DNA from: Elusimicrobiota bacterium
GTDB lineage: Bacteria; Elusimicrobiota; Elusimicrobia; Elusimicrobiales; UBA9959
NCBI GenBank assembly: GCA_036574205.1
Contig: JAINCQ010000028.1
Coordinates: 64,001-128,000, forward strand
Direction: 5' to 3'
Length of the DNA: 64,000 nucleotides
A program made the translations under genes and the position numbers. Under the pieces are notes generated by a model, which did not search any database, had not been told where the DNA came from, and was given only the letters and a program-made list of their open reading frames with translations. Position 1 is the first letter of the stretch. The number at the start of each line of letters is the position of its first letter. This document shows positions 8,023-32,500 of this stretch, one piece after another.

Positions 8023-8038
8023 AGTATTGGAGAAATTT

Positions 8039-9235
8039 ATGGATAAAGTTATTTATTTTGATAATAATGCGACTACAAGGGTTAGTGATAATGTTAAAGA
8101 TGAAATGGATAAATTTTTTACAGAATTTTACGGAAATCCATCAAGCATGCACTATTTCGGCGGGCAGGTACAAAAGTATATGGATGAGGCAAGAGAAAAA
8201 GTGGCGGAGCTTTTGGGATGTATGCCTGAGGAGATTGTTTTCACAAGTTGTGGAACTGAAAGTGATTCTACGGCTATATATAGCGCATTAAGGGTAAATC
8301 CGGATAAAAAACACATAATAACAACATCCGTTGAACATCCGGCGGTTTTAAATCTTGCCAAACATCTTGAACAACAGGGATACAGGGTAACATATCTTCA
8401 AGTAGATAAAAATGGAATGATAGATTTAAATGAACTTGAGAAATCAATATCCTCTGATACAGCAATTGTTTCAATTATGTGGGCTAATAATGAAACAGGG
8501 GTGATTTTTCCGATTGAAAAAGCTGCTGAAATAGCTAATAGAAAAGGTGTTTTATTTCATACTGACGCAGTACAGGCTGCGGGTAAAATACCTATAAATC
8601 TTTCTAAAACCAAAATAGATATGCTCTCAATTTCAGCTCACAAAATCCACGCTCCAAAAGGAATAGGAGCGCTTTATGTAAGAAAGGGGGTTAGATTCTC
8701 TCCTTTTTTGATAGGTGGACATCAGGAGAGAGGAAGACGTGCCGGAACAGAAAATGTTCCTTATATAGTAGCTTTTGGTGAAGCGGCGCGTCAGGCAATG
8801 GAGAATCTTGAAAAAGAAAATAAATATGTTAGATCTTTAAGAGAAAGACTTGAAAAAGGGATATCCGAAAGGATTCCAAATATAAGAATAAATGGTTTAA
8901 ATTCTCCGCGCCTTCCAAATACTTCAAGCATAAGTTTTGAGTATGTAGAGGGCGAGTCAATAGTCCTTCTTTTAAGCGAAAAAGGGATATGTGTTTCTAC
9001 TGGTTCAGCATGTTCAAGCGGTTCGCTTGAGCCTTCCCATGTTCTTATGGCTATGGGAATACCTTTTACATATGCTCATGGAACTATAAGGTTTTCTTTA
9101 AGTACTTACAATACCGAAGATGAAGTTGATTATGTTATAGATCAAACTGCAAACGTAATCAAGAAATTAAGAGAAATCTCTCCTTTTAGTGATTTAAGAC
9201 CTCGTTTTGAAAATGAGAAAGAGATTCATCATTGA
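8039..9235 (+). CDS. nifS: Cysteine desulfurase NifS
   Basis: YFDNNATT, HTDAVQ, SAHKIHAPKG, STGSACSSGSLEPSHVL; follows nifU. Confidence 0.95.
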   Translation: MDKVIYFDNNATTRVSDNVKDEMDKFFTEFYGNPSSMHYFGGQVQKYMDEAREKVAELLGCMPEEIVFTSCGTESDSTAIYSALRVNPDKKHIITTSVEHPAVLNLAKHLEQQGYRVTYLQVDKNGMIDLNELEKSISSDTAIVSIMWANNETGVIFPIEKAAEIANRKGVLFHTDAVQAAGKIPINLSKTKIDMLSISAHKIHAPKGIGALYVRKGVRFSPFLIGGHQERGRRAGTENVPYIVAFGEAARQAMENLEKENKYVRSLRERLEKGISERIPNIRINGLNSPRLPNTSSISFEYVEGESIVLLLSEKGICVSTGSACSSGSLEPSHVLMAMGIPFTYAHGTIRFSLSTYNTEDEVDYVIDQTANVIKKLREISPFSDLRPRFENEKEIHH

Positions 9236-12751: not shown

Positions 12752-13525
12752 TTATTTGAATTTTGAAAAGTATTTATCTATTTCTGGCCTCAACTCTATT
12801 CCTACTCTTTCAAAACAATTCAGTAACTCCAAATAAGCGCCTTCCCCTCCCAGAAAATCCCAAAATTCCTCTGCAACCTTGAGTTCATTATCTAAATCCA
12901 GCATTCCTTTTAGTGTCCATCTTTCATAAGGTTTTGGTTCGTATGGATTGTAAGGAATGGCAACATACTAATGAATATTCGCATCTGGATATTTTGATAA
13001 ATAGATTGCTATCCATTCCATTAATGTCCGCTTAAAATCTTTAAAATTGCTAATATTAGGTTTAGCTGTTTTTAAATCGAACAGATGTATGCTTCCATCT
13101 TTACTTTTAACAAACAAATCTACTTTAACTGTTCTTAATTTATTAATCTTAACCTTTACGCAAACTTTCCTTATCCTTTCAATTTCCTCTGTTTTGTTTG
13201 GAGTTCTACCTGTTGTTAGTTCGTTTATGATATGTTGAATTTCATTTTGAGCCTCTTCACTTATCGTATCACCTACCACAAATTGTTTTTGTGCAACAGG
13301 AAATCTTAAACCTGCCAATGTTTCAGCCACAGGTTCAAAAATGGAAATACCAAAAGTGGTGTTTAGAGAATGGATAAAAGAAAATAACGCCATCCTATCA
13401 CGACCAAGTAGGCGATAATGAAATGGCATATTACTGGTTTCTGGTTTATATGTTAAAAATTTATTCCTTAGACTTTCTCTAATAGTATTTTCAACTTTTT
13501 TTATTTGTTCTTTTGTAAGAGCCAT
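12752..13525 (-). pseudogene. TdeIII/MjaII-family type II restriction endonuclease with in-frame TAG at 12968-12970
   Basis: FIHSLNTTFG..IFEPVA, VDLF, DLKTAKPN. After the TAG the frame continues YVAIPYNPYEPKPYERW...AEEFWDFLGGEGAY...FSKFK to TAA at 12752. Confidence 0.85.
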
Positions 13526-13528
13526 TTT

Positions 13529-15133
13529 TCATCTTTCCTTTAAATGAAATATTGATTCTGTGTAAGGAGTATTCCTATCTTTCTCCACTCTATTAAGGAC
13601 TGGCCTCTTGAATTGATTGACAATTTTCATCCCAGCCAATTCTGCAATCTTAGGATAAAGATGAAATTTATCATTAGCCACTAAAAAAATATCATAATCA
13701 TTTTGAAGATATTTCTTGCAATTTAGAAGAACCTCTGCTATGTTTCTACTATAAGAAATTCTTTGAGCTTCTCCCTGACCTTGGGATAGAGAGCCTATCT
13801 CTAAATCATCATTACGTTCAAATTCAAATATTTCATATGCATACGCATGTTGTTCGTGATAATCAATAAGTCCAACATAAGGTGGGCTTGAAAATATCCC
13901 TCTTATTTTTTGTCTTAATAACATTTCTGCAAACTCAGTGTCTCTTTTTTTAATTTCTTCGTAAATATTTATTGTCCTTGAGTCTCCGCATAAACAGACC
14001 TGAATTGTACCTGTTCTTAATTTATCAAATTCTTTAAGTCGATTTAGTGTATCTACTGTATAAAATTCCCACCATTTTGTGATAGAAAATATTGGTTTAC
14101 AAATTTTTCCATGCTTTTTGCAATAATATGGAGTAGTAACTGGTTCTTTTAGGGTAGCTAAATCTGCATGTGTCGTTGCTCTACAAGAGCGTACAGTTCT
14201 ACTTAAAACAATGGTTAAAACTTTCTTTACATCCATGTTATCTATCTTTTTTATTTCTTGTGCTAAGAAATCTATCTCTTTCCTTACAGGTTCTAAGAAC
14301 CACCTATCTAAAAAACTTTCATTTTTATCCTGTCTTATTTTGATATGATACCTTTGAATCAACTCATTATAAATAGTAAGAAACTCTTTTTCTTTCTCTT
14401 TGGAGTATTCATCTTCATTGATTGTTCTACTGGCAACTTTCCTTTTATATTCTGGCGATGGAAAATATTTAATGTTAAATTTTGCAAGTTCTGATAGTAA
14501 ATGTTCTTCAAAAATAATATTTTTTTTATTCTTCTGAAAGTCTTTTAATTTTGAAGTTAATTTGTGAATTGTGTCTGCAATTAAAATTAAATTATGCTTT
14601 TCAACTTTTACATTAGAAATTAAAACATTGAAAGAAGAAATATCTATTCCAATGGCATGCATTCCTAATTCGTTTGCCTGAACTAATGTTGTTCCACTTC
14701 CACAAAAAGGGTCTAATACTATATCACCTTTATGAAAGTATATCTCTTTCTTATACTCATCCGTGTGAGAATCAAGGAAATACTCTACTAATTGAGGAAT
14801 AAATTTACCCTTATAAAGATGTAACCTATGAACATGTTTTGTCCTTTCTGCTTCCTTATATTGGACAAATGAGATATGCCAATTAACATCTTCTCCTAAT
14901 ACCTTTTTCCAATCTTTTTCCCTAGAAAAAGAATCATAATAATTTTTTAATTCCTCTATATCTATGAGAGGATTCCCATCAGATCCATATCTTTTTATTC
15001 TTCCGTATTGAATTAGATAAGATATATTTGAAAGGGTAACTTTGCGACCTGTATATTGAGAAGCCAAAATACTTGCCTCTTTTAAATTAATCAATTTCTT
15101 ATCTTCTTCTCTAAAAGATGTAAATTGGTTCAT
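13529..15133 (-). CDS. N4-cytosine DNA methyltransferase with N-terminal HTH-like extension
   Basis: HRLHLYKGKFIPQLV, DPFCGSGTT, FSSPPY; directly upstream of the REase. Confidence 0.9.
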   Translation of the reverse strand: MNQFTSFREEDKKLINLKEASILASQYTGRKVTLSNISYLIQYGRIKRYGSDGNPLIDIEELKNYYDSFSREKDWKKVLGEDVNWHISFVQYKEAERTKHVHRLHLYKGKFIPQLVEYFLDSHTDEYKKEIYFHKGDIVLDPFCGSGTTLVQANELGMHAIGIDISSFNVLISNVKVEKHNLILIADTIHKLTSKLKDFQKNKKNIIFEEHLLSELAKFNIKYFPSPEYKRKVASRTINEDEYSKEKEKEFLTIYNELIQRYHIKIRQDKNESFLDRWFLEPVRKEIDFLAQEIKKIDNMDVKKVLTIVLSRTVRSCRATTHADLATLKEPVTTPYYCKKHGKICKPIFSITKWWEFYTVDTLNRLKEFDKLRTGTIQVCLCGDSRTINIYEEIKKRDTEFAEMLLRQKIRGIFSSPPYVGLIDYHEQHAYAYEIFEFERNDDLEIGSLSQGQGEAQRISYSRNIAEVLLNCKKYLQNDYDIFLVANDKFHLYPKIAELAGMKIVNQFKRPVLNRVEKDRNTPYTESIFHLKER

Positions 15134-15682: not shown

Positions 15683-16936
15683 TTAGAGTTTTTCAATAGA
15701 CCCTAAATAGTTTCTAAGATCCTTCCAGAAGGAGGAATAAGTTTTTGACACAGAATCTTTATCTTTTATTTTAATTTCTGGATTATTGATTATTTTAAGT
15801 AAGCCACCAATCATTGCAACTCTATGGTCTTTTTGTGGATCAAGGCTTTTGATTTTTTTAAAATCAGATGGTCCAATTATAGTTAACTTATTTTTGGTTC
15901 TTTTAACCCTAACTCCAAGTTTTTTAAGAATTAAAAATATATTTGAAAATCTGTCAGATTCTTTGTTTTTTAAAAGGTTTATATGGTGTATTTCGCTCTT
16001 CCCCTTAGCTTTTGCCATAATAAGGGCAAGTGGCATAATCTCATCTATCATAGTAGTTATATCTTCTTTTATAACTATTGGTTTTAAGTTTTTTGGTGGT
16101 TTTATATGTATATCTGCTATTGGTTCATTTGATATAACTTTTTTGTTTTTAAACAAAATCTTTGCCCCCATTTCAGATATTGCTTTTAAAAATCCAATTC
16201 TTTTAGGGTTAATACCACAGTTTTTAATAACTATTTCTTTTTTTAATAACAAAGCTATTGTAATAAAAACAGCAGCCTGTGATATATCCCCTGGAACTTC
16301 TATATTTTTCGGAGTTAATTTATTTTTGGTAATGTAAATACTTTTTCCGGCTTTATGTGTAGTTATTCCAAACACTTTTAAAATCCTTTCCGTATGGTCT
16401 CTTGTTAAAAAAGTTTCTTTTATTTTTATAGGACCGGAATATAATGATGCTATTAATAAAGCAGATTTTGTCTGAGCTGAACTGGTTTTAAAATTTAGGG
16501 GTTTTAAAATTGATGGATATGTTTGAATCGGTAACTTAAAATTATTATGTTTTATTTTAGCCCCCATTTTTTTAAAAATCAGTATATCCTGTTTAAAACT
16601 TCTTCTTAAAATAGTCTTTTGTCCATTTATTTTATAGGGAAATTTTTGATTTAAAAGAATTGGAAGCAAAAGTCTTAATAGAAGAGCAGATTCTCCAACG
16701 TTTATTTGAGCTTTTTTAGCACCATATTTGCCGAACCCTTTTATCTCAATAGATTTTGAGTTTATTTTTATTTTAGCTCCAAGTCTCCTGAGATTTTTTA
16801 TTGTATTTAATGAGTCCTCTGATATAAGCGGATTTAAAATTTTTATTTTTTTATCTGAAAGCGATGAAAGAACAAGATCTCTTATTGTTATTGATTTATC
16901 TGGAGGGGGGATGTATATTATTTTATTTTTCATCAT
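15683..16936 (-). CDS. aroA: EPSP synthase
   Basis: PDKSIT, SAQTKSALL, RDHTER, IDE, KESDR, DHRVAM. Confidence 0.9.
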   Translation of the reverse strand: MMKNKIIYIPPPDKSITIRDLVLSSLSDKKIKILNPLISEDSLNTIKNLRRLGAKIKINSKSIEIKGFGKYGAKKAQINVGESALLLRLLLPILLNQKFPYKINGQKTILRRSFKQDILIFKKMGAKIKHNNFKLPIQTYPSILKPLNFKTSSAQTKSALLIASLYSGPIKIKETFLTRDHTERILKVFGITTHKAGKSIYITKNKLTPKNIEVPGDISQAAVFITIALLLKKEIVIKNCGINPKRIGFLKAISEMGAKILFKNKKVISNEPIADIHIKPPKNLKPIVIKEDITTMIDEIMPLALIMAKAKGKSEIHHINLLKNKESDRFSNIFLILKKLGVRVKRTKNKLTIIGPSDFKKIKSLDPQKDHRVAMIGGLLKIINNPEIKIKDKDSVSKTYSSFWKDLRNYLGSIEKL

Positions 16937-17372
16937 CCGTATTAATCTTCAAACAGAAATCTATTGCTTTTAAATAAGAGTTTATGCCTTCACCCAAAAA
17001 AGTTTTGATACAGACATCTTTTACGACGGATTTTCTTCTAAATTTTTCGCGTTTATTGATATCTGAAAGGTGAACCTCTATTGTTGGAATTCCGCATGCT
17101 TTTATGCAATCCCTTATAGCATAGCTATAATGGGTAAATGCCGCGGGGTTTATTATTATAAAATCCGCCCAGTTCATTTGTTTTGTTATTAAATCTATTA
17201 TCTCGCCTTCATAATTTGATTGATATATTTTTATCAAAACATTTTTAGACTTTGCATAACTTTTTAATTTTTTATTTACTTCTTTAAGCGAAAGCTTGCC
17301 ATATATTTCTGGTTCCCTTTTACCAAGGAGGTGGAGATTAGGACCGTGTATGATTAATATTTTTTTTCGCAT
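16923..17372 (-). CDS. aroQ: Type II 3-dehydroquinate dehydratase
   Basis: HGPNLHLLGKREPEIYG, INPAAFTHYS, EVHLS, REKFR. Confidence 0.95.
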   Translation of the reverse strand: MRKKILIIHGPNLHLLGKREPEIYGKLSLKEVNKKLKSYAKSKNVLIKIYQSNYEGEIIDLITKQMNWADFIIINPAAFTHYSYAIRDCIKACGIPTIEVHLSDINKREKFRRKSVVKDVCIKTFLGEGINSYLKAIDFCLKINTDDEK

Positions 17373-18397
17373 AACTCCTCATATGTTTTTGATAATATTG
17401 AAGGATCAATGTTTATAGCAGGTTTAATTTTCTTTTTCTTTAATACAAGAAAATAATTATTAGATCCTTTATTTTTCTTATCATAAGTTATTAATTCAGA
17501 AAATCTTTTAAAGTCAGATTTTTTAAAAGGAAATGCTGGCTCATAGATTTTGAATATTTCGCTAAATTTCTCCTTTTTATAGTTTATAAGTCCTAAATTT
17601 TTTGATAAAAGTACTTCATATATAACACCATAATATACTGCATCGCCATGAGAAATGTCATATAACTTTTCAAAAGCATGAGCGGGAGTATGTCCGAAAT
17701 TTAGAATTTCTCGCTTTCCATTTGAATCAAAAGGGTCTTTCTGGACTATATCGGTTTTAAATTTGACACATAAATTTATGGAAGATTTAATTGCCTGTGG
17801 ATTTTTAGTTATTACTGATGGCAGAAGTTTTTTTAGTTTTTCTGATGTTTTTTGTGGGGTTATTAAGATGTATTTTACCATCTCGCCTATCCCGTTAAAA
17901 AAAGTTTTATTTTGTTTTAAGGGAAATTCCCAGTCTATGAGGACAAGCACCGGAAAATGAAAAGTGCCTAAAAGATTTTTAATTCCATTAAAATCTATTG
18001 CAGTTTTCCCGCCGATAGAGGCATCTATCTGTGAAAGAAATGTGGTTGGGACAGATATCCATCTGATTCCACGCATATAAAGCGAAGAGGCAAGGCCGAC
18101 TATATCTGAAACCTTCCCGCCGCCAAATGCAAGAACAATAGAGTTTCTTGTTAATTTATTTTTGGCAAAAAAATTTAAAATACTTGAAAGCTCAGAAAGA
18201 TTTTTGTTGCTAAGAGGTTGTAATTCAAAAACTGGATATGAGTTAATTTTTCTTTTTAAAAAAGGTTTTGCCATTGAATCTGCTACAATAACAAGTTTAT
18301 CGTAATCTAAATCTGATAGTTCTTTTTTCAAATTCAGGTTCTCTAAAATTTTTATAAAAGAGTGTGTTGTTCTCTTAATTTTTAGTTTAATTTCCAT
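17354..18397 (-). CDS. aroB: 3-dehydroquinate synthase
   Basis: GGGKVSD, PTTFLSQIDASIGGKT, KNLLG, LNFGHT, HGDAV. Confidence 0.95.
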   Translation of the reverse strand: MEIKLKIKRTTHSFIKILENLNLKKELSDLDYDKLVIVADSMAKPFLKRKINSYPVFELQPLSNKNLSELSSILNFFAKNKLTRNSIVLAFGGGKVSDIVGLASSLYMRGIRWISVPTTFLSQIDASIGGKTAIDFNGIKNLLGTFHFPVLVLIDWEFPLKQNKTFFNGIGEMVKYILITPQKTSEKLKKLLPSVITKNPQAIKSSINLCVKFKTDIVQKDPFDSNGKREILNFGHTPAHAFEKLYDISHGDAVYYGVIYEVLLSKNLGLINYKKEKFSEIFKIYEPAFPFKKSDFKRFSELITYDKKNKGSNNYFLVLKKKKIKPAINIDPSILSKTYEELCEKKY

Positions 18398-18905
18398 AAT
18401 ATGCGGCTTTTATTTTATTAGTTATTTCCCTCAATTTTATTTCTTTTATTGTGATAAGAGCTTTTGAGTATTTTTTTAATCTTTTCTTATAAAGCGTAAT
18501 TATCTTTTTTTTGGTTTCAGGATATCCTGTTAATAATGGGCGTGTGTTTTTGTTTTTTAAAAACCTTTTCTCAAGAATCTCAAATGGTGGATTTAAAAAG
18601 ATTTCAAGCGCTTGTGGTTTTTTTGTTGGGAAGAATCCTCCTCCCGTGGCTATAACACAGTTTTCCTCTTTCAGAATTTTTGAAAAAATTTTTTTCTCAA
18701 TCTTTCTAAAATTGGTGAATCCATATCTTTTAGTAAAATCTGATATTCTTCCATGTATTTTTTCAAACTCAGTATCAATGTCATAAAATTTAAGCCCTAA
18801 TTTTTTTGAAATAGATTTTGCCACTGTAGTTTTCCCTGAGCACATAAAACCGTATAATATTATCTTTTTATATTTTGAAGTTTTTTTAGTGTTTGTCTTT
18901 TCCAT
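18387..18905 (-). CDS. aroK: Shikimate kinase
   Basis: GFMCSGKTT, DID, FR..E, ATGGG, RPLL. Confidence 0.9.
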   Translation of the reverse strand: MEKTNTKKTSKYKKIILYGFMCSGKTTVAKSISKKLGLKFYDIDTEFEKIHGRISDFTKRYGFTNFRKIEKKIFSKILKEENCVIATGGGFFPTKKPQALEIFLNPPFEILEKRFLKNKNTRPLLTGYPETKKKIITLYKKRLKKYSKALITIKEIKLREITNKIKAAYYGN

Positions 18906-19879
18906 ATATTGAATGCTCTTTTTATTTCATTGAAATTTTCATTGCCAAATTTTAACATTATCTCATTTGCCAGTGTATATGAAACAACATGTTCACAGAT
19001 TATGGCAGCTGCAAAAACTGAGGTTATATCACTTGTTTGTGATGATAGTTTTAGTTTCTTTTTAGTTTTAAGGTCATAGCTAATTACTTCTTTTTTAATA
19101 GAAGCCAGAGGTCTTGTTGCGGCTCTTATGATAATATCGTTCCCATCAGTTATGCCAGCTTCAATTCCCCCCAGAACAGCCGGATGCTTTATAACCTCAG
19201 TAACTTCCTTCTGACTTAATTTAAACCCATCTCCAAACTCAATGCCTTTTATTGAGCCAATTGTTAAAATTGCTGATGCAAGTTTTGAAGAGATTCTATC
19301 TTCACCCTGTGAAAAACCGCCAACTCCAGCCGGAAAGTTTTTTACTCTTATTTCAAAAACACCGCCAAAACTCAAACCTCTTTCTTCAAAATTCTTTATT
19401 ATACTCTCAAATTTTTTATTATCATTTTCTCCATAACAGGATATAACCTTTGATTCTACTTTTATTCCAAGAAGTTCAATAAATCTTTTTGTAAAAGAGA
19501 ATATGGCAACTCTTGCCGCAGTTTCCCGCGCAGATGATCTTTCCTTTATTATTTCTGCGTTATAATGGGAATATTTAATCATACCCGCAAGTTCACTATG
19601 GGTGGGGGTGAAGTAAGAATGCGGTTGGATTTGAGAGGGATTTGAATTTTCAATTAAAATCCCTATAGGCATTCCGGTTGTTATCCCGTTTTTAACCCCG
19701 CTTATAATTTCAAATTTGTCTGTTTCAGATTTCTGTCTTATTCCCCTTCCAGGACATTCTCTCCTTCTTTTAAGTTCATTGGCTATATACTGAGGGGTTA
19801 TCCTTACACCATAAGGAAAACCATCAAGGATTGCAACAAGAAATTTTCCATGAGAATCTCCTGCTGTTAGATACTTCAT
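18860..19879 (-). CDS. aroC: Chorismate synthase (divergent)
   Basis: TAGDSHG, ERSSARETAARVA, KGIEFGDGF, GGIEAGITDG. Confidence 0.85.
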   Translation of the reverse strand: MKYLTAGDSHGKFLVAILDGFPYGVRITPQYIANELKRRRECPGRGIRQKSETDKFEIISGVKNGITTGMPIGILIENSNPSQIQPHSYFTPTHSELAGMIKYSHYNAEIIKERSSARETAARVAIFSFTKRFIELLGIKVESKVISCYGENDNKKFESIIKNFEERGLSFGGVFEIRVKNFPAGVGGFSQGEDRISSKLASAILTIGSIKGIEFGDGFKLSQKEVTEVIKHPAVLGGIEAGITDGNDIIIRAATRPLASIKKEVISYDLKTKKKLKLSSQTSDITSVFAAAIICEHVVSYTLANEIMLKFGNENFNEIKRAFNIWKRQTLKKLQNIKR

Positions 19880-20667
19880 AAATTCCTCTTTAAATATTTT
19901 ATAAGTTTTCTATTTATATTTGAAACTAAAATTCCTGTGATAAATTTAAATCCCTCAATTGCTTGTTGGACTAAAATTTCAATGCCGTCTATATAATTTA
20001 TTTTTTTCTTTTTTGCTTCACAAATTATATTGGTATCATTTTTATCATAAGCCCAGTCTACTAAAAGAGATAAGTTTTTAAAGTTTATATTGAGAGTATC
20101 ATTTGAATACATCCCTATTGGTGTCGCATTTATAAATATATCATATTCTTTTTCGCATTTATTGAATCCAAAAACCTCAAACTTAAACTTCTTGCCAAAT
20201 TTTTTACACATAGCCTTTGCTTTTTTTTCATTTCTTGCTGATATAAAAATTTTTTTTACGCCCATTTCACCAAGCGCTTTAATTGATGCTCTTGCAGATC
20301 CTCCACAGCCTGCTATAAGAGCTGTCTTGCCTTTAATCTTGTATCGGCTGATTAGTTTTTTGAAAGCAAGATAGTCAGTATTTATCCCGAAAGCTTTTGA
20401 ATCCCTTATCTTTACACAGTTTATAGCGCCAATTTTTTTAGATAACGGTTTAATAGATGGGTGTTTAAATAGCTGTTCTTTAAATGGTATAGTTATAAAA
20501 AATCCATCATATCCATTTCCAATTATCTCATTAACTAATTCTTGACAATTTTTAGTCTCAAAAAGGGTAAATTTTAATTTAATTTTTTTCTCTCTTGCAA
20601 TATATTCAAATATTTTTTTAGAAAGTGATTTTGAAAGTGGATATCCCAGCAGTCCCAGTTTTATCAT
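19876..20667 (-). CDS. aroE: Shikimate dehydrogenase
   Basis: GYPLSKSLS, TIPFK, GAIN, NTD, GCGGSARA, NATPIGM. Confidence 0.9.
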   Translation of the reverse strand: MIKLGLLGYPLSKSLSKKIFEYIAREKKIKLKFTLFETKNCQELVNEIIGNGYDGFFITIPFKEQLFKHPSIKPLSKKIGAINCVKIRDSKAFGINTDYLAFKKLISRYKIKGKTALIAGCGGSARASIKALGEMGVKKIFISARNEKKAKAMCKKFGKKFKFEVFGFNKCEKEYDIFINATPIGMYSNDTLNINFKNLSLLVDWAYDKNDTNIICEAKKKKINYIDGIEILVQQAIEGFKFITGILVSNINRKLIKYLKRNL

Positions 20668-21608
20668 CTGATTATATTCATTACCTTTTTAAATGTTTCT
20701 ATATCTATTATCTGTTTTGTGTCTATTAGCGATTTTTCCGGGGTTATGCTTGTTTCAACCATAACTCCATCAGATATTCCTGCCGTTTTAGCTGCAAAGT
20801 TTATAACTTTTTTCCTGTCTTTTGCGCTATGGCTTAAATCGGCGATTATTGGTATTTTCAACTCTTTTTTTATTCTTTTTATTATCTCTAAATTTATTGA
20901 TGCAATCCCATCTGAAAGATTATCTCCCCTTTCACATAAAATTATTTTCTTTGCGCCATATTTTAAAATATATTCAGCGGAATATAAAAATTCTCTTAAA
21001 TTAGATTTTGGCTGCCTTTTTAAAAGAACCGGTAAACCTGAAGCTGCTGCTTCTTTTAAAAGCACATAGTTTTTCATATTTCTTGCGCCTATCTGGATTA
21101 TATCGCATACTCCTGTTAATTTATCAATAACTCTATAATCCATAACTTCCATCACAAATGGGACTTTTAATTTTTTTCTTGCCTCTTTTAATTTTGAAAT
21201 TCCTTTTTTACCAAACCCTTCCCATCCATAGGGTGAGCTCCTTGGCTTAAACAAAGGCGCCCTTATAGCGTCAACTCCAAGTTTTTTAAGTTCAAAGCCA
21301 GTTTTAATGAAGATATCCCAGTCATCTATAACACATGGCCCTGCTATAATAATTTTTTTTAGCGGGTTTATCGGATACTTAAAACGATATTTATATGAAT
21401 AGACAAGTGGAAGCAGTTCATGGTTTTTAGCTTCTATTTTTTTAACTCCCTTTATATTTTCAAGTCTTGGGAAAATATTATAAACATATCCTGCTTTAAA
21501 GTTTTTCACTAAAAATTCACGGTTTTTATGTATTAAAATTAATTTGGGATCTATTTTTTTAATTTCCTCTGCTATCTTTTTCGGATTCCCATAAAATGTT
21601 ATTCTCAT
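20664..21608 (-). CDS. aroF: DAHP synthase, class I-beta
   Basis: IAGPC, FKPRSSPY, QIGARNM, LKR, CERG, DLSH; operon context. Confidence 0.85.
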   Translation of the reverse strand: MRITFYGNPKKIAEEIKKIDPKLILIHKNREFLVKNFKAGYVYNIFPRLENIKGVKKIEAKNHELLPLVYSYKYRFKYPINPLKKIIIAGPCVIDDWDIFIKTGFELKKLGVDAIRAPLFKPRSSPYGWEGFGKKGISKLKEARKKLKVPFVMEVMDYRVIDKLTGVCDIIQIGARNMKNYVLLKEAAASGLPVLLKRQPKSNLREFLYSAEYILKYGAKKIILCERGDNLSDGIASINLEIIKRIKKELKIPIIADLSHSAKDRKKVINFAAKTAGISDGVMVETSITPEKSLIDTKQIIDIETFKKVMNIIR

Positions 21609-21862
21609 TTTTGTAACTCTCTGGATTTTTTTATTATAACTGAAAAAATCTGTGAGATTTCATTTTTATATTTCCCTGCGTTTTTTTTAACATTTGTCAT
21701 AACTTTTTTTTCTCTTGCTTTATCTGTTATTTTTAAACCAATTTTTTTCTTTACATCTCCTATCCTGGAAGATAAGTTAAATCTTTTTTTCAAAAGTTTT
21801 ACCAGTTTGATATCTATTAAATCTATTTTCATTCTTAAATCTTTTATTTTATGTTTTACCAT
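21605..21862 (-). CDS. Monofunctional chorismate mutase (AroQ/CM_2 type)
   Basis: LRMKIDLIDIKLVKLLKKR...IGDVK...DKARE...SRELQ. Confidence 0.9.
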   Translation of the reverse strand: MVKHKIKDLRMKIDLIDIKLVKLLKKRFNLSSRIGDVKKKIGLKITDKAREKKVMTNVKKNAGKYKNEISQIFSVIIKKSRELQK

Positions 21863-22529
21863 AGTTTAAAACAAGTCTTTTTATGTGCGGAGAATTTATA
21901 ATTTTATTAATTCTAAAATAAGAGTTTTCTTTTAAATAAATAATTTCTCCGCTTTTTTCCTCTTCTAATTTTATAACATTTTTATCAATACAGCTATATT
22001 TACAGTTTCCTATTTTATACTCATATGGGCAAAACCTTGTCATTGCAAGATACTCAAATGGATAATAGTATGATAAAGGTATTTTTGAGTCTTTTAATTT
22101 TTTAACGATAAATTCTTCATCTGTTTCTACATATTTTATTCGATATTTTTTTATGAAATTTGAGAGAAAATTTATGTCCATCCTTAGATAATCATGCGAA
22201 ATCGGCCTTGACAAAAGGACTTCAACCATAAATTCCCTTCTTCTTATTTCGTTTATAAATCCTATATCAGTGGCTGAGACCTCAACCTGAATTTTTGATT
22301 TTGTTAGTTTATTTAAGAGTAATATTGCTTTTTTTACATTGTTGTCATTCATAAGAGAGGTTGCAATAGTTAAATTTTTAATTCCATTTTCGTAAAGAAA
22401 TTTTATGTGTTTAAAATCTGGAATAAGGTTAGCGCAAAAATTAGAGCCAGTATAGACTCTATCAAATTTTTTTAAGTATTTTATATTAAGATTATCAAAA
22501 GGATTTATTAAAATTGCTTTTTCTAACAT
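21849..22529 (-). CDS. U32-family Fe-S protein, UbiV-like subunit
   Basis: DRVYTGSNFC (C32) plus LAMTRFC-x8-C-x3-C (C167/C176/C180): a 1+3 Cys layout like UbiV; adjacent to a U32 gene. Confidence 0.6.
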   Translation of the reverse strand: MLEKAILINPFDNLNIKYLKKFDRVYTGSNFCANLIPDFKHIKFLYENGIKNLTIATSLMNDNNVKKAILLLNKLTKSKIQVEVSATDIGFINEIRRREFMVEVLLSRPISHDYLRMDINFLSNFIKKYRIKYVETDEEFIVKKLKDSKIPLSYYYPFEYLAMTRFCPYEYKIGNCKYSCIDKNVIKLEEEKSGEIIYLKENSYFRINKIINSPHIKRLVLNYGKT

Positions 22530-23362
22530 ATAAACCTGTATTTTAAAGAGAGTTTTTTGTAAATTTTATCATAGTCATTGACTGCTTTTAGCGCCTGGGA
22601 TAAAAATTCATCTTCAGTTTTGGCTTTTTCCGCAATAGCTGAGATAAGCTTTGCTTCGGAAAATATTAGTTGTGTAAGATTAAACAGAGGGGATCTGCCT
22701 ATTTTAACTATATTTACCCCAAGTTTATAAAACCTGTAAAATTGTCTTAATCTTTCCCTTGTAGAATATGTTGTCATTCTAAATATTTTCCCATCGTTTA
22801 AATAGGTTTTAAGACAAGCTGTTGAATCTTCTCCATGGCAGTTTAAAAAACATATCCCGTTAAACATCTTACAAGTTTCTCTATGTTTTATAAACATTTC
22901 AGTTTCTATTTGTTTTATTATATTTTTTGCTTCTTCCGGGGTTATTTGTTCACATAGCGCTATTCTTTTAATGCCGTAATTTTTGAAAAACTTAAGTGAA
23001 TATGAATTGAGGCATAGGCTAAGCGTTGAAAGAATTGTAAAAAGTTTTAATTTTCTTTTTTTCAACTCCTCAAAAATTGCTATATCTTTGATTATAAAAC
23101 CGTCAACCCCAGCCTCAGCTAGTTCTTCTATGGCTTTTATTGCTTCCCAGATTATTTCCCCCTGAACTTCGTTTGCCACATAAAAAAGTTTTTTCCTGCC
23201 CAATAATTTCTTTGCTTCTATAAAATCTTTTTGTTTTGAAAAGTTTGGCGCTTTTTCCACATGAGATGGTATATACGAAAGTCCGCAGTAAAATTCATCA
23301 GCGCCAAGTTTAAGGAATTTTTCTATTTCCTTTAAAGTTCCGGCTCCAACCTGGATAATCAT
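22523..23362 (-). CDS. U32-family Fe-S protein, UbiU/TrhP-like subunit
   Basis: GADEFYCG, GVDGFIIKD, LSTL..CLN, GIKRIAL, EMF..H..C-x6-C-x3-C-x7-C, VKIGR. Confidence 0.8.
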   Translation of the reverse strand: MIIQVGAGTLKEIEKFLKLGADEFYCGLSYIPSHVEKAPNFSKQKDFIEAKKLLGRKKLFYVANEVQGEIIWEAIKAIEELAEAGVDGFIIKDIAIFEELKKRKLKLFTILSTLSLCLNSYSLKFFKNYGIKRIALCEQITPEEAKNIIKQIETEMFIKHRETCKMFNGICFLNCHGEDSTACLKTYLNDGKIFRMTTYSTRERLRQFYRFYKLGVNIVKIGRSPLFNLTQLIFSEAKLISAIAEKAKTEDEFLSQALKAVNDYDKIYKKLSLKYRFIC

Positions 23363-23398
23363 AACTAAATTCTATAAAATTTATGTAAAATATTGTTT

Positions 23399-23800
23399 AT
23401 GGAAGATAAGATTTTTGTAATTGCGGTAGATGATGATGATGTAATACTTGATATGTATAAGGGGGGACTTGTAAATTATGATGTTATGGTTTTTGACGAG
23501 CCTAAAAAAGCAAGGGAGTATCTTTTTGCAGGGAACAGAAAGCCTGATATAATCCTTATGGATATAATGATGCCTTCAGTGGATGGTATAACACTTATAA
23601 GGGAGATACATTCAAGCGATAAACTTTGCGACATTCCCATAGTAGCTGTAAGCGGGCTTTCTGATGCCGCCACATTAAACGATGCTATGCTTTTTGGCGC
23701 TGTGGATTATATTATAAAACCATTTGATATTGTTGAACTTTCAAACAGGATTAGGTCAATAGTAAAAAAATATAAAAACAGGAAGATGGAGGAAAGATGA
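23399..23800 (+). CDS. Single-domain response regulator
   Basis: VDDD, DIILMDIMMP, IVAVSG, KPF. Confidence 0.9.
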   Translation: MEDKIFVIAVDDDDVILDMYKGGLVNYDVMVFDEPKKAREYLFAGNRKPDIILMDIMMPSVDGITLIREIHSSDKLCDIPIVAVSGLSDAATLNDAMLFGAVDYIIKPFDIVELSNRIRSIVKKYKNRKMEER

Positions 23801-24963
23801 ATATTTTAGGGTTATTTGGAAAAACCGAGGATGGTTCGACAGAAAGGCTTATTCAGTATTCTTTCTTATATTTTGCTTTTTATGTAATTTATACAATGCT
23901 TACTAAAAGACTTCAGGAGCTTTATAAACTTAGTGGAACTACTTTTACAGTGTATAATACTATCGGGGGGATGCTAATTTGCATATTGGTTGTGATAGTT
24001 TTGAAGTGGTATAAATTTAAATCTTCAACTTATATAAAGTTTTTAGGTATTAATATGCCTAAAGAGTTTTTATATATAATACCATCCGGGGTTTGCACTG
24101 CTATTATTATTCCCACAACAACCCTTATGTATACTCTCCCAATTTCAGTTATGGTTGCTATGATAATAATGAGGGCAAGCATTATAATTATAAGCAGGGT
24201 TATAGATCAGATTCAGATATGGCAGGGGATATTAAAAAAGAAAGTTTACTGGGAAGAAAATGTGGGTTCTATATTTGCCATTTTAGCTTTAAGCGTTCAG
24301 TTATTTATAAAAATTCATACAGGGGATGATTTTAGGATTGATTTTTTTAAGGTAAATCCCGGAGATTTTGATTTTATCAGAAATAATGCTGCAATGATGA
24401 TTCTTACTTTTTATCTTGGAGCTTATACTATCAGGCTTTACATAATGAATTATTATAAAAACACAAGACCAAAAGGCGCTGTTTATGATACGAAAGGTTT
24501 CTTTGCGATAGAGCAGATAGCAAGCACTGTAGCAATACTTCTGGCAGGTTTTCTTTATTATTATTTTGCTGAAGTTGATACAACTGTTGAAGGCTATAGC
24601 AAAACCTTTGCTTATCAATATAAATTTTCTTTTGATAATGTGCCTGAGAAATGGGGGATGATTGTTGCAAGTGGAATCCCTTTTGGTATGGCAGCCTTTT
24701 TTTCAGTATTTTTATTTATGTTTAAAGGAAGAACAGCAACCTTTGCCGGGCTTGTAAATAGAATAACCTCTCTACTTGCGGGAACCTTTTCTACAATATT
24801 GTTATGGCTTTTCTTTAATAAGAAGGCGCCTAAAAATGAGGATTGGATAGCTCTCATCCTTGTTTTTATTGCTATATATTTTCTTGGAAAAGGCGAAAAG
24901 AGGAGAGCCTGTGAACTTATTTCAAACAAAGAAATAGGAACGACAACAGTTAAATGTAACTAA
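23797..24963 (+). CDS. Multi-pass membrane protein, unknown function (possibly transporter)
   Basis: About 9-10 hydrophobic segments. Confidence 0.6.
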   Translation: MNILGLFGKTEDGSTERLIQYSFLYFAFYVIYTMLTKRLQELYKLSGTTFTVYNTIGGMLICILVVIVLKWYKFKSSTYIKFLGINMPKEFLYIIPSGVCTAIIIPTTTLMYTLPISVMVAMIIMRASIIIISRVIDQIQIWQGILKKKVYWEENVGSIFAILALSVQLFIKIHTGDDFRIDFFKVNPGDFDFIRNNAAMMILTFYLGAYTIRLYIMNYYKNTRPKGAVYDTKGFFAIEQIASTVAILLAGFLYYYFAEVDTTVEGYSKTFAYQYKFSFDNVPEKWGMIVASGIPFGMAAFFSVFLFMFKGRTATFAGLVNRITSLLAGTFSTILLWLFFNKKAPKNEDWIALILVFIAIYFLGKGEKRRACELISNKEIGTTTVKCN

Positions 24964-28163: not shown

Positions 28164-28260
28164 TTCTTTGTTGCGTCTTAACATAAAAAGGAAATTCGGA
28201 CCTCTGCAATGCACGTCACGGATTATCCTTTACCAGAATTGAAGTTGCTCATAGCTATTC
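28161..28260 (+). ncRNA. tracrRNA candidate (3' end uncertain, may run antisense into cas2)
   Basis: TCTTTGTTGCGTCTTAAC (28165-28182) is complementary to repeat positions 1-18 with 2 mismatches; followed by AAGG..CCT, a nexus-like stem. Confidence 0.75.
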
Positions 28261-28586
28261 GGGTTGTTTGCTATATTTCGTTTACTATCTTTTATTTTAT
28301 CTGAAATAGTTACCATCTGTCCCCATTGATTATCTGTTATAAAAAGACATTTTATACTTCCAGTATTTGGATTTATTTTTTTTAAATGAGATAAAAAACT
28401 TTCTTTTTTATCCAGTGTAACAGCAGCCCTTACATACACAGAGTATTGAAGCATCAGATAACCGGCATCTAATAAATCATTTCTAAATTTGGTGGCAAGT
28501 CTTCTTTCTTCTGCTGTATCTGTTGGTAAATCAAACATAACAAAAAGCCAGCCCATTCTATATTCACTCCTTTTATTTTTCTTCAT
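28230..28586 (-). CDS. cas2: CRISPR-associated Cas2
   Basis: WLFVMFDLP, FRNDLL..GY.MLQYSVY, ITDNQW. Confidence 0.95.
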   Translation of the reverse strand: MKKNKRSEYRMGWLFVMFDLPTDTAEERRLATKFRNDLLDAGYLMLQYSVYVRAAVTLDKKESFLSHLKKINPNTGSIKCLFITDNQWGQMVTISDKIKDSKRNIANNPNSYEQLQFW

Positions 28587-29478
28587 AAATATGATCTATT
28601 TTAGGAATGTATAAAGCGCCGGGAAAAGCAGAATAAAAACAGTCTGCGACTGAAGATACATATCTATCTATTATCTTTGGCATTTTTAGTTTTTTACCAT
28701 TATATTTAAAAAGTAATGATGTAAATTTTTCAGCCACTACTTTAATAAATTCCCTTATATCTTTTTTAGGATTGTTTTTCTTAAATTCAAATAAAATTAA
28801 ATCACAAAATGGTCTTAGTGGCTCCATTAAATCATATAACAAAGGCTCTGATTTAAATCTATATTTATGATGAATTCCAAGTAATGGATTAAGCCCATGC
28901 GCTATTATTTCTCTATGGCAAAAAGCTCCCATAACAGCATAGGCATAATTCAGCATTTGATTGACTGGATGTTCTGCACCTTTCTTTTCTCTTTCTTTTG
29001 GTTTTTTATGCCCAAATTTAGAAAAATATTTTTTCCAGTAATGTCTTGCGCAATTTCCTTCATCTATATTATTGCTTTTTAAAATCTCATAAAGATTGTG
29101 AGTCACATTTAATTTATCTAAAACTTTTGCTTGATTTTCAATTTTTGCTTTTATTATTTTTTGCCATAAAGAGGAAGAAAATTTTTCATCTTTTTGTATT
29201 TGTTTTTCAAAAATTTGTGAATGGACTATGCCTGAAAATCCAGAAGTCTTTCCTATTGGTCGATAATTTTCATCGCAATGAATGATTACTGCTTTATTAT
29301 TGATTAAATGATTTAAACTTTCACCGGAAAAGGAAATACCTCTTGCAGCTACAATAACTGCTAAAATATCATTTAATGGTGCTCTTTTTTCTCCTTCTTC
29401 GCTTTTTAATACTAAAAATCCTCTATCTACTGAAAGATAACTATTATGGGTTAAGATATGTATTATATGATACGACAT
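28573..29478 (-). CDS. cas1: CRISPR-associated Cas1 (type II)
   Basis: EGNCARHYW, NQMLNYAYA, GIHH, DLMEPLRP. Confidence 0.95.
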   Translation of the reverse strand: MSYHIIHILTHNSYLSVDRGFLVLKSEEGEKRAPLNDILAVIVAARGISFSGESLNHLINNKAVIIHCDENYRPIGKTSGFSGIVHSQIFEKQIQKDEKFSSSLWQKIIKAKIENQAKVLDKLNVTHNLYEILKSNNIDEGNCARHYWKKYFSKFGHKKPKEREKKGAEHPVNQMLNYAYAVMGAFCHREIIAHGLNPLLGIHHKYRFKSEPLLYDLMEPLRPFCDLILFEFKKNNPKKDIREFIKVVAEKFTSLLFKYNGKKLKMPKIIDRYVSSVADCFYSAFPGALYIPKIDHIYEEK

Positions 29479-29524
29479 TACTTATTTTGTAATGTCTTAT
29501 TTTATCAAAAATATTAAATTTTTT

Positions 29525-32500
29525 TTAAATAACAGGATGCATTAAGCCAATATCTAATAAATATTTTATATTAACTTTCCATTCCTTTGAAAAATCTATA
29601 GATACTATTTTTGTAGAATTGTCGTGAGAAATGGTTGTTAAATAATAATTGCCAATAGGTATAATATCCTTATTAGCTATTCTAACCTCTCTTTCTATTT
29701 TCACAAGCATACCTGAGCGAAAATAATATGCTTCTTTATATTTGTTTTCTAATAATCTTCTTTTTTCATATAAAGATTCAAAAGCATAGATTGGTTCTCT
29801 TTCCCATTTACCTTTTTCGTTTTTATATACAATATATCCAAAAGACTCTTTTTTTTGTTTTAAATACTGTCCTGGCATTTTACCTTTTATAAATTCGCCA
29901 AGATTTTTAATTTTTCCAGATAAAAAGTCTTTTATATCTTTTTCTTTTATCTCAGAGCTTGCCTTAAGTAATATTTTTTTGGGTTTTCCACCTGCAAAAT
30001 AATTATCTAAAAACTGTTTCCATTCTTCTTGAGTTGGATTTGTATTTAGTTTCTCACTGAAGTCTTTTCTTATCTTTGGACTGAATATCTTATCAACATA
30101 TTTTTTAGCTGTTGCTATGTCATAATAGCCTTCAATATTTTTTACATCACCAACAAAACGGGTAACAAAAACATATTTATCTGTTCCATTTATTTTTCTC
30201 AAACCATATATAGTCTCAGCAAGTTTAGGTTTTTCATACCTTATATATTCAGGAAAGCACTTTTCAATATTTTCTTTACAATAATCAGGGGTAAACCATA
30301 CCGGGAAAAAATCTTTTTTCTTATCATTCATACTTATTTCAGGCAGCATAGATAAAACAAGAGCGTCTAAAGCATGATGTCTTGGATTATCTCTGTTTTT
30401 TTCGTCTATTTTTCCAGATAAAACAAGCTCTTTGTATTCATCATCATTAATATTTGGATATAAAATTCTATCCAATTTATAAGCATTTCTCATTTTGGCT
30501 GTTAAAGCGCCATTTGCTACTATAACTTTTTTAGTTGAACCTTTTGTAGCCTGTTCCCATCCAAAAAATAAATGACATATCTTCTGAGAAAGCTTTGCTA
30601 TATAGGCTGTTTCAGCAAGATGAGTGTATTTATCCACCAGTTCTCTGGCATCTGAAGATATTAATAGATCTTTTTTCTTATCATTAATCTTTAATCCATC
30701 TATTCTCCTTAAATATTCATTCCATCTATCTGTCTTACTTAGCCATTCATAAGGTGTTCTTTTCCCTTTTTCCTCATTGTTTTTTCTTGATGTGAGAACT
30801 TTATTTATATAAGCATCAGGTCCACCATCTTCCCGTGGAACTATATGATCTATTTCATAATTATCTATCTCTGTCTCTTTAATACTTTTCCCATCATATA
30901 TATCAATTCCGTCCTGTTCTCTAAATAATTTAACCTTTAAAACAGATTTTTTCCCTTTTAAACCTAATTCTTTAGCCTGATTAAAAGCTAAGTCATTTTC
31001 TTTTCTGTTTTTATTTTGTTGAGAAATAATTTCTTTCCTTCTTTTCTCACTGTAAAATCCCTCTTTCGGGTCTCTTACAAATTCAATAATTATTTTTTCT
31101 GGCTCACCATATTTGTTTTTTAATTCTTTAATCTTGTTATAAAATAATATCAATCTGTGTTTAACCACTGGATTTGTAATTTTAGATATTATTTCATTAA
31201 TTTTCCCTTGTCTTTCTTCTTCATTTAATTTTGCTTCTTCTTCCCTTGTATCAGGTATATAAAAATTATAATCATCTGGTAGTTTTGAAAGAAAACTATA
31301 ATCTTCTTTAATTAGTCCTTTTTTAGGATCCGTATTAGTAAGGTTACTAATTTTTTCATTATAAAGCTCTGATGGTTTCTTGCCGGATAATATCAACTCT
31401 TTTATTAATCTTAAAGCTGGTCGGCAAAAACTTGATCTTCCACTTGTTTTAGGCGCATCTATTTTTTTCTGGGAAGGATTAGGAACTGCATTGAAATTTT
31501 CTTTTAGATATTTGGCCCATTGTTTTTCAGTAACTTTTAATTTATCTTTAAATTTTTCAAATATTTGTTGTATTTGTTTAGGGTCAAATCTTTTCTCTTC
31601 ACCAGTTAAAATGTCAAGATAACTCATGTTTTTTATTTTCATTAAAAAAGTCACTTCTTTATTCAATTCATCCTTGGCTTTGCATACATTAAGTCTTGGA
31701 ATTAAAACACATTTTGAAATAATTCTATTATCAAATCTCGGAGTTTTCTGTGAAAGAAGTCCCTGCCATTCCCAGTCTCTGCCTCTGTATTTCTTGTAAT
31801 CTTTTAAATTATAAGCCGCATATTTGCTTTTTGAAGGACCATAAAGAATATAGTCTAAGTTTTCTTTTAAATAAGGATATTGCTCTCCTGCTTTTATTAA
31901 CATATCTTTTATTTCTTTTTCAATAAGTTCTCTTGGAATCACCACTTCTACTTTGCCATCTTTATTTCTAACAGGAGCAGGATTTTCTGAAATTCTTTTA
32001 GTCAAATTATCGGGTTCTTCTTGAGACCAGATCTCCATTTTATATGCTTCATAATAGCAAGGATAATAAAACTGTTTATTATCTCTAAATATGTTTTCAA
32101 GTTCTTTTTTATATCTTTCTACTGCTTCTTTGTTTTCTTTCTCATCAGTATTTTCTTCGGTTTCCTCTTCAACATTTCTTTTAGGTTTATTTATCCATGG
32201 CAAATCTGGATCATATCCTCTATGTTGTATGGCAGACCATATGGCTTTAAAAATTTGCCAGCCTTCTAATTTTCTTCCCTGTAAAAGAGCTATTCTTAAT
32301 AAAGCTGAATTGTATATTGTATTATCTCCTTCTTCTGGAAACTCACGGGACATTCTCTCATCAGGTTTTATAAATACGTTTCCTTCAAGATGTCCTGTTT
32401 CTAAAACTTCAATCCCTGCTTTTTTCGCCTGTTCTTTCCACCATTCTTCCCTTTTTTTATGAGCGATTCTTGTTCTTATCTGTCTTCTTCTTTCTCGTGC

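Follow-up and report, generated by a model that had tools for sequence, protein, structure and literature searches.

A U32 protein pair joined to a complete shikimate-to-prephenate operon in an Elusimicrobiota bacterium: a candidate heterodimer with its own prephenate supply

Why should a complete pathway to prephenate be joined, in one operon, to two genes of the U32 type? This question is raised by a stretch of 64,000 nucleotides (hereafter the window) from an Elusimicrobiota bacterium of the order Elusimicrobiales (GenBank assembly GCA_036574205.1, contig JAINCQ010000028.1, positions 64,001 to 128,000 of the forward strand). On its minus strand, ten open reading frames (ORFs) between 23362 and 15683 encode two proteins, called here U32-A and U32-B, a chorismate mutase (CM) and all seven enzymes of the shikimate pathway. 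A preliminary description had proposed that the operon supplies prephenate to a U32 heterodimer rather than aromatic amino acids to the cell, and this proposal is supported, as far as computation allows, by the dead-end pathway, the gene linkage, the distribution among relatives and the predicted complex. We suggest that U32-A and U32-B would form a heterodimeric Fe-S enzyme that belongs with the U32 'oxidases' and resembles UbiU-UbiV in its build, with the catalytic U32 core supplied by U32-A and a four-cysteine cluster site in a UbiV-like U32-B. The eight genes co-transcribed with the pair would lead from phosphoenolpyruvate (PEP) and erythrose 4-phosphate to prephenate, which, by analogy with UbiU-V, would be the organic oxygen donor and would be released as phenylpyruvate and CO2. 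The substrate would most likely be HxsA4, a small exported (Ser-His-Gly)n protein, or the form of it modified by radical S-adenosylmethionine (radical-SAM) enzymes, and not RNA or a quinone. As the best explanation of the whole (heterodimer, prephenate supply and HxsA4-type substrate), this reading is given a probability of roughly 0.55. Its first part, a U32 heterodimer that receives prephenate from a supply of its own, is probable, while an HxsA4-type substrate is put forward tentatively, at somewhat less than even odds.

The window's genome (G000; G001 and so on denote related genomes, and L0xx related or fetched loci) comprises 1.85 Mb in 43 contigs and is 95.3% complete. It contains a single aro set, that of the operon, with no second one elsewhere, and the CM gene of the operon is its only CM_2 match. 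Profile searches of this genome gave no match for prephenate dehydratase (PDT), prephenate dehydrogenase (PDH_N), Chorismate_bind or indole-3-glycerol-phosphate synthase (IGPS), while the same searches were positive in 14 of 14 control genomes. The observation that the pathway stops at prephenate, with no Phe, Tyr or Trp branch, was first made for the window and extends to the whole genome. MqnA/VitK2_biosynth and the chorismate lyase UbiC also had no match in these profile searches. Because no known chorismate- or prephenate-using enzyme was found in the genome, prephenate would be mainly a co-substrate of the U32 pair.

Two other uses of the pathway were considered and rejected. Carboxy-S-adenosylmethionine, made by CmoA in the other route known to use up prephenate, was rejected as a prephenate sink because neither CmoA nor CmoB was found in the window's genome, where only generic methyltransferases matched, far below the cutoff. 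A quinone was set aside as the lead substrate: the searches found no MenF/PabB-type enzyme, no MqnA and no UbiC, and the one MenA-like gene is not linked to the pair. That gene, the only member of the UbiA family in the genome, encodes a prenyltransferase scoring 152 bits (below the cutoff of 277) and stands on contig C6 (L034:6429-10294) in a row with a polyprenyl synthase, an amidohydrolase and a HAD hydrolase; the row may belong to quinone salvage or to another prenylation pathway. As had been stated before, no ubiT-like gene is present among the neighbours of the pair, UbiT not having been searched genome-wide.

Is the dead end peculiar to one genome? We compared 41 related genomes, which are kin, so that the counts describe a pattern and are not a statistic. 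Chorismate synthase is present in 24 genomes, and CM_2 in exactly these. PDT occurs in none, PDH in one (G017), Chorismate_bind in one (G020) and PF01136, the U32 family, in 23. When the two traits are cross-tabulated, aro plus CM and U32 are both present in 22 genomes and both missing from 16; aro plus CM occurs without U32 in two (G017, which has PDH, and G019, which is 60% complete), and U32 without aro plus CM in one (G003, 81% complete). U32 has also expanded, together with a prephenate supply, outside the window's family: G028, which belongs to a different family of the order, has aro and CM, lacks HxsB, and carries U32 genes three in tandem (frames of 368-396 aa) at G028:C310:3067-5962.

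The same counts could be read as those of a phenylalanine operon, in which prephenate becomes phenylpyruvate, the substrate of a transaminase, with the U32 pair serving as a non-orthologous PDT, with an unrecognised enzyme in that role, or spontaneously. PDT is indeed absent from all 41 genomes though 24 retain aro plus CM, and phenylpyruvate is the product released in the mechanism proposed for U32 enzymes (PMC10990095). However, with no Tyr or Trp branch found, aromatic amino acids would be imported anyway; an Fe-S heterodimer would be an unlikely substitute for a simple dehydratase; several A/B pairs per genome lie beside radical-SAM genes and away from aro; and both G006 and family f2 do without the pathway. 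We therefore consider a phenylalanine operon quite improbable.

The linkage itself recurs. U32-B was found in 11 of the 41 genomes, all of them of the window's family, and the pair stands beside the CM-aro genes in three arrangements: fused in G000 and G001, the latter with the same ten-gene order as the window, divergent in G008, G014 and G023, and convergent in L040 and L041, which come from high-GC metagenome-assembled genomes (MAGs) of the Elusimicrobia type and whose A proteins belong to a different A subclade. That the linkage might be unique to this genome, while complete Phe, Tyr and Trp branches exist elsewhere in it, had been named in the preliminary description as grounds for giving up the proposal; neither was found. 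According to the fetched loci, the pair is not next to aro in G002, G005, G009, G010, G012 and G018, and among 12 genome-contig loci, with L035 counted once as a duplicate of G001, aro lies within 10 kb in three. Could the adjacency then be meaningless, a product of gene-order drift in a compact genome? The separation of pair and aro in six of the 11 carriers of U32-B would agree with drift, but three arrangements in two A subclades, overlapping junctions in two genomes and the dead-end pathway make it very improbable.

The predicted complex bears on the pair itself. All three runs of the structure prediction, proposed earlier as a check, gave a heterodimer of U32-A and U32-B with an interface score (ipSAE) of 0.91, whereas the highest score among three controls was 0.02; a score of 0.91 is reached by 116 of 157 solved complexes and by two of 215 mismatched pairs. 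At least 95% of the contacts are shared among the three runs, and the predicted local distance difference test score (pLDDT) of the partners is at least 91. The predicted interface takes in the cysteine-bearing loops, that is, residues 165-174 and 182-189 of A and 160-174 of B. The PDB search gave no sequence relative that is a U32 heterodimer, so the predictor is unlikely to have reproduced a complex already solved. From these models, U32-A and U32-B would form a heterodimer, and the cysteines described below suggest that the pair would bind an Fe-S cluster.

U32-A (279 aa, 22523..23362, minus strand) matches PF01136 at E 2.6e-17 with 63.3 bits against a cutoff of 22.4. Its model has a pLDDT of 91, and the best Foldseek match in the PDB is the U32 structure 5d88 (E 4.8e-7). 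In hhalign, the A-family profile matches E. coli TrhP at 99.0% probability (E 2.3e-18), UbiU at 98.9% and UbiV at 6.7%. The equivalog models for TrhP (NF011996) and UbiU (NF047963) gave 42.9 bits on U32-A against cutoffs of 534 and 440, while in the positive controls E. coli UbiU and UbiV scored 559.9 and 363.1 bits with their own models. The protein has eight cysteines (C26, C117, C137, C164, C171, C175, C183 and C279). By hhalign, its E155, C164, C171 and C183 are aligned with E162, C170, C177 and C197 of TrhP, of which E162, C170 and C177 are reported to be essential in vivo (PMC6599085). The motif of the U32 family is CX6CX15CX3/4C, together with a Glu that is essential in TrhP and RlhA. 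Among 28 aligned relatives of U32-A, C171 and C183 do not vary, and C164 is kept in at least 90% of the rows; E155 is also conserved. C175 is not; at least four cysteines occur in the segment in 22 of the 28 rows, the fourth at shifting positions. Consequently, the motif C164-x6-C-x3-C-x7-C of the preliminary description stands as far as the positions of its cysteines are concerned, while C175 as a ligand common to the family does not. Close homologues of U32-A are labelled Elusimicrobiales, and the related loci come from Elusimicrobia MAGs.

A maximum-likelihood (ML) tree of 44 rows and 287 columns, in which E. coli UbiV, UbiU, TrhP and RlhA are the only characterised references, places 36 A-type proteins apart from these four at a support of 100/96 and the window's U32-A in a clade of 11 orthologues at 100/98. 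Four U32 proteins of about 600 aa from the related genomes group with E. coli RlhA at 99/99. The family profile and the tree, both suggested beforehand, agree in showing U32-A as a true U32 core in a clade apart from UbiU, TrhP and RlhA. This A family may be one of the uncharacterised groups PepU32#1-#6 that Kimura and Sakai give in their tree and lists of U32 subfamilies. We infer that U32-A is the catalytic core subunit, with the Glu and CX6C motif of the family.

U32-B (226 aa, 21849..22529, minus strand) is a divergent, UbiV-like subunit with no match in Pfam or NCBIfam, so remote-homology tests were needed. An exhaustive phmmer search found 191 representatives at E <=0.001, 55 of them at E <=1e-10 and all of about 215-290 aa, where a word-indexed homologue search found only four proteins. 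U32-B has exactly four cysteines, C32, C167, C176 and C180. In an alignment of 65 rows, G28, C32, C167 and C180 are invariant, and C176, E83, D88, G90, R108, E135, D137 and R218 are at least 90% conserved. The B-family profile matches the A family at an hhalign probability of 90% (E 1.6e-6) and E. coli UbiV at 70% (E 4.1e-5), as compared with 23% for UbiU. The four cysteines are aligned on C39, C180, C193 and C197 of UbiV, which are the four [4Fe-4S] ligands according to mutagenesis (PMC6747719). The layout noticed earlier, C32 followed by C167-x8-C-x3-C, is of the UbiV type. The UbiV model itself (NF047965) has no match on U32-B at E 0.01, and no sequence relatives of the B-family or A-family profiles were found in the PDB.

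The AlphaFold model of U32-B (pLDDT 95.5) has a fold like that of a triosephosphate isomerase (TIM) barrel. Its best Foldseek match in the PDB is again 5d88, the only U32 structure (E 1.2e-4, TM 0.55/0.51). In VIA-align, 5d88 gives the longest alignment (191 residues) at Z 12.5, level with generic TIM barrels (CutC, Z 13.2); because of this tie, the fold alone is not decisive for U32-B as a U32 protein. The structure neighbours in the ESM Atlas include PF01136 clusters at TM 0.74-0.75. The possibility that U32-B lacks the U32 fold had been raised as an objection, and the Foldseek match and the profile links to the A family and UbiV speak otherwise. We conclude that U32-B is most probably a UbiV-like subunit that has diverged beyond current annotation, with a TIM barrel remotely related to U32-A. 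As had been noted, neither subunit carries an extra C-terminal domain: Pfam found neither Peptidase_U32_C (PF16325) nor any other.

The closest known system is UbiU-UbiV (YhbU/YhbV), the heterodimeric O2-independent ubiquinone hydroxylase of E. coli. Both systems have two adjacent U32-type genes and a four-cysteine site, in U32-A a putative one, in each subunit, and the profiles place U32-A nearer UbiU and U32-B nearer UbiV. UbiV is described as having one cysteine far upstream and then C-x(n)-C-x3-C (PMC6747719). There are also differences: the equivalog cutoffs are not reached, the A family is separated from UbiU at 100/96, UbiC was not found, the spacing is x8 in U32-B and x12 in UbiV, and the fourth cysteine of U32-A is not at the position of UbiU C232. 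With TrhP and RlhA, U32-A shares the U32 core, and with TrhP the Glu and CX6C as well; unlike them, it lacks Peptidase_U32_C, stays below the TrhP cutoff and forms a separate clade. Prephenate is reported as the oxygen donor for UbiU-V (PMC10990095), and TrhP and RlhA are reported to require it (PMC6599085). The donor role was deduced from genetics and isotope labelling in E. coli, and a 2024 review still regards direct catalysis by U32 proteins as unproven (PMC11574389). By analogy with these enzymes, the pair would use prephenate and carry out a hydroxylation.

Then, on what could the pair act? The A/B pairs, including the orthologues in G002, G014 and G023, sit within long runs of radical-SAM genes, which also hold PEP-utilizer/PPDK_N, Dph6-like, TP_methylase-like, Gamma_PGA_hydro and AA_kinase genes. 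Among the annotated loci, a radical-SAM gene lies within two genes of 10 of the 11 paralogous or orthologous pairs, and the orthologous pairs of G014 and G023 overlap the adjoining gene of the run. Contig C31 of the window's genome carries a further pair, A' (305 aa) with B' (264 aa), located directly after two radical-SAM genes. The cluster on this contig extends over about 28 kb, and its roughly 14 radical-SAM genes are accompanied by a fusion of NflH and NflD, an NflK-like gene and a truncated U32 gene. According to NCBIfam, it contains HxsA4 (NF038313, 77.4 bits, above 55) and two HxsB (510 and 461 bits, above 370), together with matches below cutoff, namely many HxsC-like genes (best 169 bits against 267.9), an HxsC4 match (146 against 500) and an HxsD-like one (41 against 50). 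HxsA4 (L032:9098-9421, 107 aa) consists of a basic N-terminus or leader, a hydrophobic segment and (Ser-His-Gly)n repeats, ends in SRGGWC, and is the only HxS-repeat ORF in the window's genome. In the fetched flanks of A/B pairs, HxS-repeat ORFs are present in G002, G005, G012 and L042, and the HxsA4 orthologues of the last three end in GSY. HxsB is above cutoff in the window's genome and in 23 of 24 genomes of its family, as opposed to 0 of 16 of other families. The operon had been called a self-contained system, which is probably not the case, given that the paralogous pairs and the orthologues in G002, G014 and G023 lie within such His-Xaa-Ser radical-SAM clusters. Since A/B pairs occur inside expanded HxsA4 radical-SAM clusters, a modified His-rich peptide is the leading substrate candidate.

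The canonical four-gene HXS system (HxsA-D) is described as antiphage, with radical-SAM enzymes that mature an exported HxS-repeat effector, and 99.7% of its cases are from Pseudomonadota (PMC13128918). The C31 cluster shares with it the HxS-repeat protein and HxsB maturases above cutoff, and differs in having about 14 radical-SAM genes together with PEP-utilizer, Dph6-like and TP_methylase-like genes, NflH/D/K and U32 pairs. The terms 'U32', 'shikimate' and 'hydroxyl' do not occur in the available text of that paper (PMC13128918). The C31 locus is also of the same kind as the group VI Nfl/radical-SAM loci of groundwater Elusimicrobia (bioRxiv 10.1101/765248), read as possible tetrapyrrole-reduction or cofactor loci (bioRxiv 10.1101/765248; PMC13474568). 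In the available parts of these two sources, the main text of the former has no 'U32', 'peptidase', 'shikimate' or 'chorismate' and the latter no 'U32' or 'prephenate'; Figure S6 of the Elusimicrobia paper, which presents gene neighbourhoods, may show these genes.

The nitrogenase-like genes of C31 lie at L031:7326-11432, with an NflH-NflD fusion of 823 aa (Fer4_NifH and Oxidored_nitro) and an NflK-like protein of 428 aa. After them come two truncated genes, one of the U32 type (135 aa) and one of the radical-SAM type (173 aa), which look like decay at the edge of a group VI nitrogenase-like locus. Oxidored_nitro/Nfl is above cutoff in six of the 41 relatives. Tight coupling of the pair to these genes was set aside, Nfl being present in only three of the 11 genomes with U32-B. 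Beside the Hxs cluster (L032:13400-14353) there is a gene resembling a protein-arginine kinase (McsB-type, ATP-gua_Ptrans), and then an ABC/FtsX exporter pair. In the radical-SAM runs, HxsB-like frames broken by one or two TAA were seen at G001:C20:107712-109037, G002:C33:21388-22653 and G003:C116:4075-5445, which may be pseudogenes or assembly errors.

It should be noted that in G014 and G023 the aro operon itself is embedded in the radical-SAM run, between radical-SAM and Diphthami_syn_2 genes. This would fit a different role of the pathway, in which carbon from chorismate or prephenate is built into the cluster's product and that moiety is tailored by the U32 pair, with no part as an oxygen donor. 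A dedicated DAHP synthase with shikimate genes is a known pattern in biosynthetic clusters. However, G006 has HxsB, and neither U32 nor aro nor CM was found in it; therefore, aro plus CM tracks U32 rather than Hxs. Moreover, family genomes with only an RlhA-like U32 protein also retain aro plus CM, and no aromatic-acid ligase or transferase lies beside the pair in the annotated loci. A building-block role is consequently about as improbable as a phenylalanine operon.

The main rival to an HxsA4-type substrate is RNA. The pair would then be an RNA hydroxylase, still fed with prephenate, as a two-subunit replacement of RlhA, which makes 5-hydroxycytidine at position 2501 of 23S rRNA (ho5C2501), or of TrhP, which makes 5-hydroxyuridine at position 34 of tRNA (ho5U34). 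The only characterised U32 enzymes that do not act on quinones act on RNA, and a tandem pair, TrhP1/TrhP2 of Bacillus subtilis, is reported to be required as a whole for ho5U34 (PMC6599085). In addition, the seven family genomes with the window-type A (G000, G001, G002, G008, G010, G014 and G023) have no large, RlhA-like U32 protein, while 14 other genomes of the family carry one of about 600 aa, four of which were sampled in the tree. On the other hand, in G002, G014 and G023 the orthologous pair stands inside the radical-SAM/Hxs run and overlaps with its genes, there are up to several paralogous pairs per genome, neither Peptidase_U32_C nor another extra domain is present, CmoA/CmoB were not found, and the complementarity with RlhA-like proteins may simply reflect shared ancestry. 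On balance, an RNA substrate is unlikely, if less so than the phenylalanine and building-block roles.

Several points weigh against our interpretation of a prephenate-fed heterodimer with an HxsA4-type substrate. As for the subunits, the PF01136 match of U32-A covers only positions 4-107 of the 233 in the profile, that is, half of the family model, and U32-A is without a fourth cysteine ligand common to its family. No Pfam family was assigned to U32-B or to any of 65 relatives, and its link to UbiV is a profile probability of 70% against a single sequence. As for the pathway, the absence of branch enzymes refers to known families in a 95%-complete MAG, and an analogue from a family not yet recognised could be present. 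Since related genomes are not independent, the association looks stronger in the cross-table than it is, and the pair is adjacent to aro in only five of the 11 carriers of U32-B. As for the substrate, the window's pair is on another contig than the Hxs cluster and has no radical-SAM neighbour in the window, and the complementarity of the window-type pair and RlhA-like U32 proteins fits RNA as well. Finally, the prephenate-dependent, O2-independent hydroxylation predicted for the pair is a proposal from genomes.

The gene order of the operon is as it had been described, ten co-oriented genes with every junction overlapping, according to the ORF list as well as Pfam and NCBIfam. Pfam assigned a family to nine of the ten genes, with NCBIfam in agreement. 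For the longest-start ORFs the overlaps are, in order, 7, 14, 4, 4, 4, 46, 11, 19 and 14 nt, lengths that assume these starts, while the true ones are possibly further downstream. All genes being on the minus strand, the pair is followed by the CM (AroQ class, CM_2, 85 aa, 21605..21862; PF01817, E 9e-19) and a type I-beta 3-deoxy-D-arabino-heptulosonate 7-phosphate (DAHP) synthase (314 aa, 20664..21608; PF00793, DAHP_synth_1, E 7.7e-48; NF006421 219.6 bits, below the cutoff of 335). Then come shikimate dehydrogenase AroE (19876..20667; PF08501, Shikimate_dh_N, and PF01488, Shikimate_DH; TIGR00507, E 1.5e-45), chorismate synthase AroC (18860..19879; PF01264, Chorismate_synt, E 8.3e-74; TIGR00033 245.8 bits, above 212.2) and shikimate kinase AroK (18387..18905; PF01202, SKI, E 4.7e-28). 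The last three are 3-dehydroquinate synthase AroB (17354..18397; PF01761, DHQ_synthase, and PF24621, DHQS_C; TIGR01357, E 2.9e-70), type II 3-dehydroquinate dehydratase AroQ (16923..17372; PF01220, DHquinase_II, E 5e-54; NF003805 182.6 bits, above 146) and 5-enolpyruvylshikimate-3-phosphate (EPSP) synthase AroA (15683..16936; PF00275, EPSP_synthase, E 6.2e-72; TIGR01356 285.1 bits, just below 287.25). A pattern scan for promoters and terminators showed no excess over shuffled sequences, with 45 promoter-like sites against 42.9 expected and six terminator-like ones against 4.8.

Divergent from the operon (23393-24963, plus strand) are a stand-alone response-regulator receiver of 135 aa and a multi-pass membrane protein of 388 aa without a family match, which could be regulators of the operon. 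In G001, ORFs of 135 and 388 aa flank the operon at the same positions, the likeness to the window genes being one of position and length only. Directly downstream of the aro genes (12968-15133, minus strand) there are a TdeIII-type restriction endonuclease (185 aa) and an N6/N4 DNA methylase (534 aa). NifU (7189-8022) and NifS (8027-9235) lie 6.4 kb from the end of the operon, close to the 6 kb noted before; a specific link to the operon is not borne out, as unrelated genes intervene, namely a MORN protein, a histidine kinase and the TdeIII pair. Their proximity looks incidental, and we regard them as housekeeping genes. Further away, the window contains a type II CRISPR-Cas module (28230-32629, minus strand), with a Cas9-like protein of 1034 aa (HNH_4, RuvC_III), Cas1 and Cas2.

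The literature was covered through titles and the openings of abstracts, with few papers in depth. Within this scope, we found no description of a U32 pair fused to a CM-shikimate operon, of a bacterial family in which the shikimate pathway ends at prephenate, or of U32 pairs in Hxs clusters. What is new here is a pair that represents a new U32 subfamily, has a donor supply of its own and probably acts on a new class of substrate; the paralogous A/B pairs within expanded HxsA4 radical-SAM clusters are new as well. U32-B defines an unannotated UbiV-like family, represented by the phmmer matches given above.

For the biology of U32 proteins, the locus offers independent evolutionary evidence for their link to prephenate, since the genes are fused to a full supply pathway for which no other prephenate use is known, and across a bacterial family the presence of this dead-end pathway goes with that of U32 genes. 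The locus brings U32 chemistry together with the His-Xaa-Ser radical-SAM systems and the group VI nitrogenase-like loci, and, with subunits of 279 and 226 aa and no extra domains, provides a small experimental system. It also changes how 'aromatic amino acid biosynthesis' is to be read in metabolic reconstructions of such genomes. We may go one step further and speculate that the whole family keeps the shikimate pathway and CM only for the prephenate donor, and that the new UbiU/UbiV-like heterodimer found here hydroxylates HxsA4 or its radical-SAM-modified form. This wider proposal is doubtful. If true, it would be the first case of a U32 enzyme with a protein substrate, and also of protein hydroxylation driven by prephenate and independent of O2.

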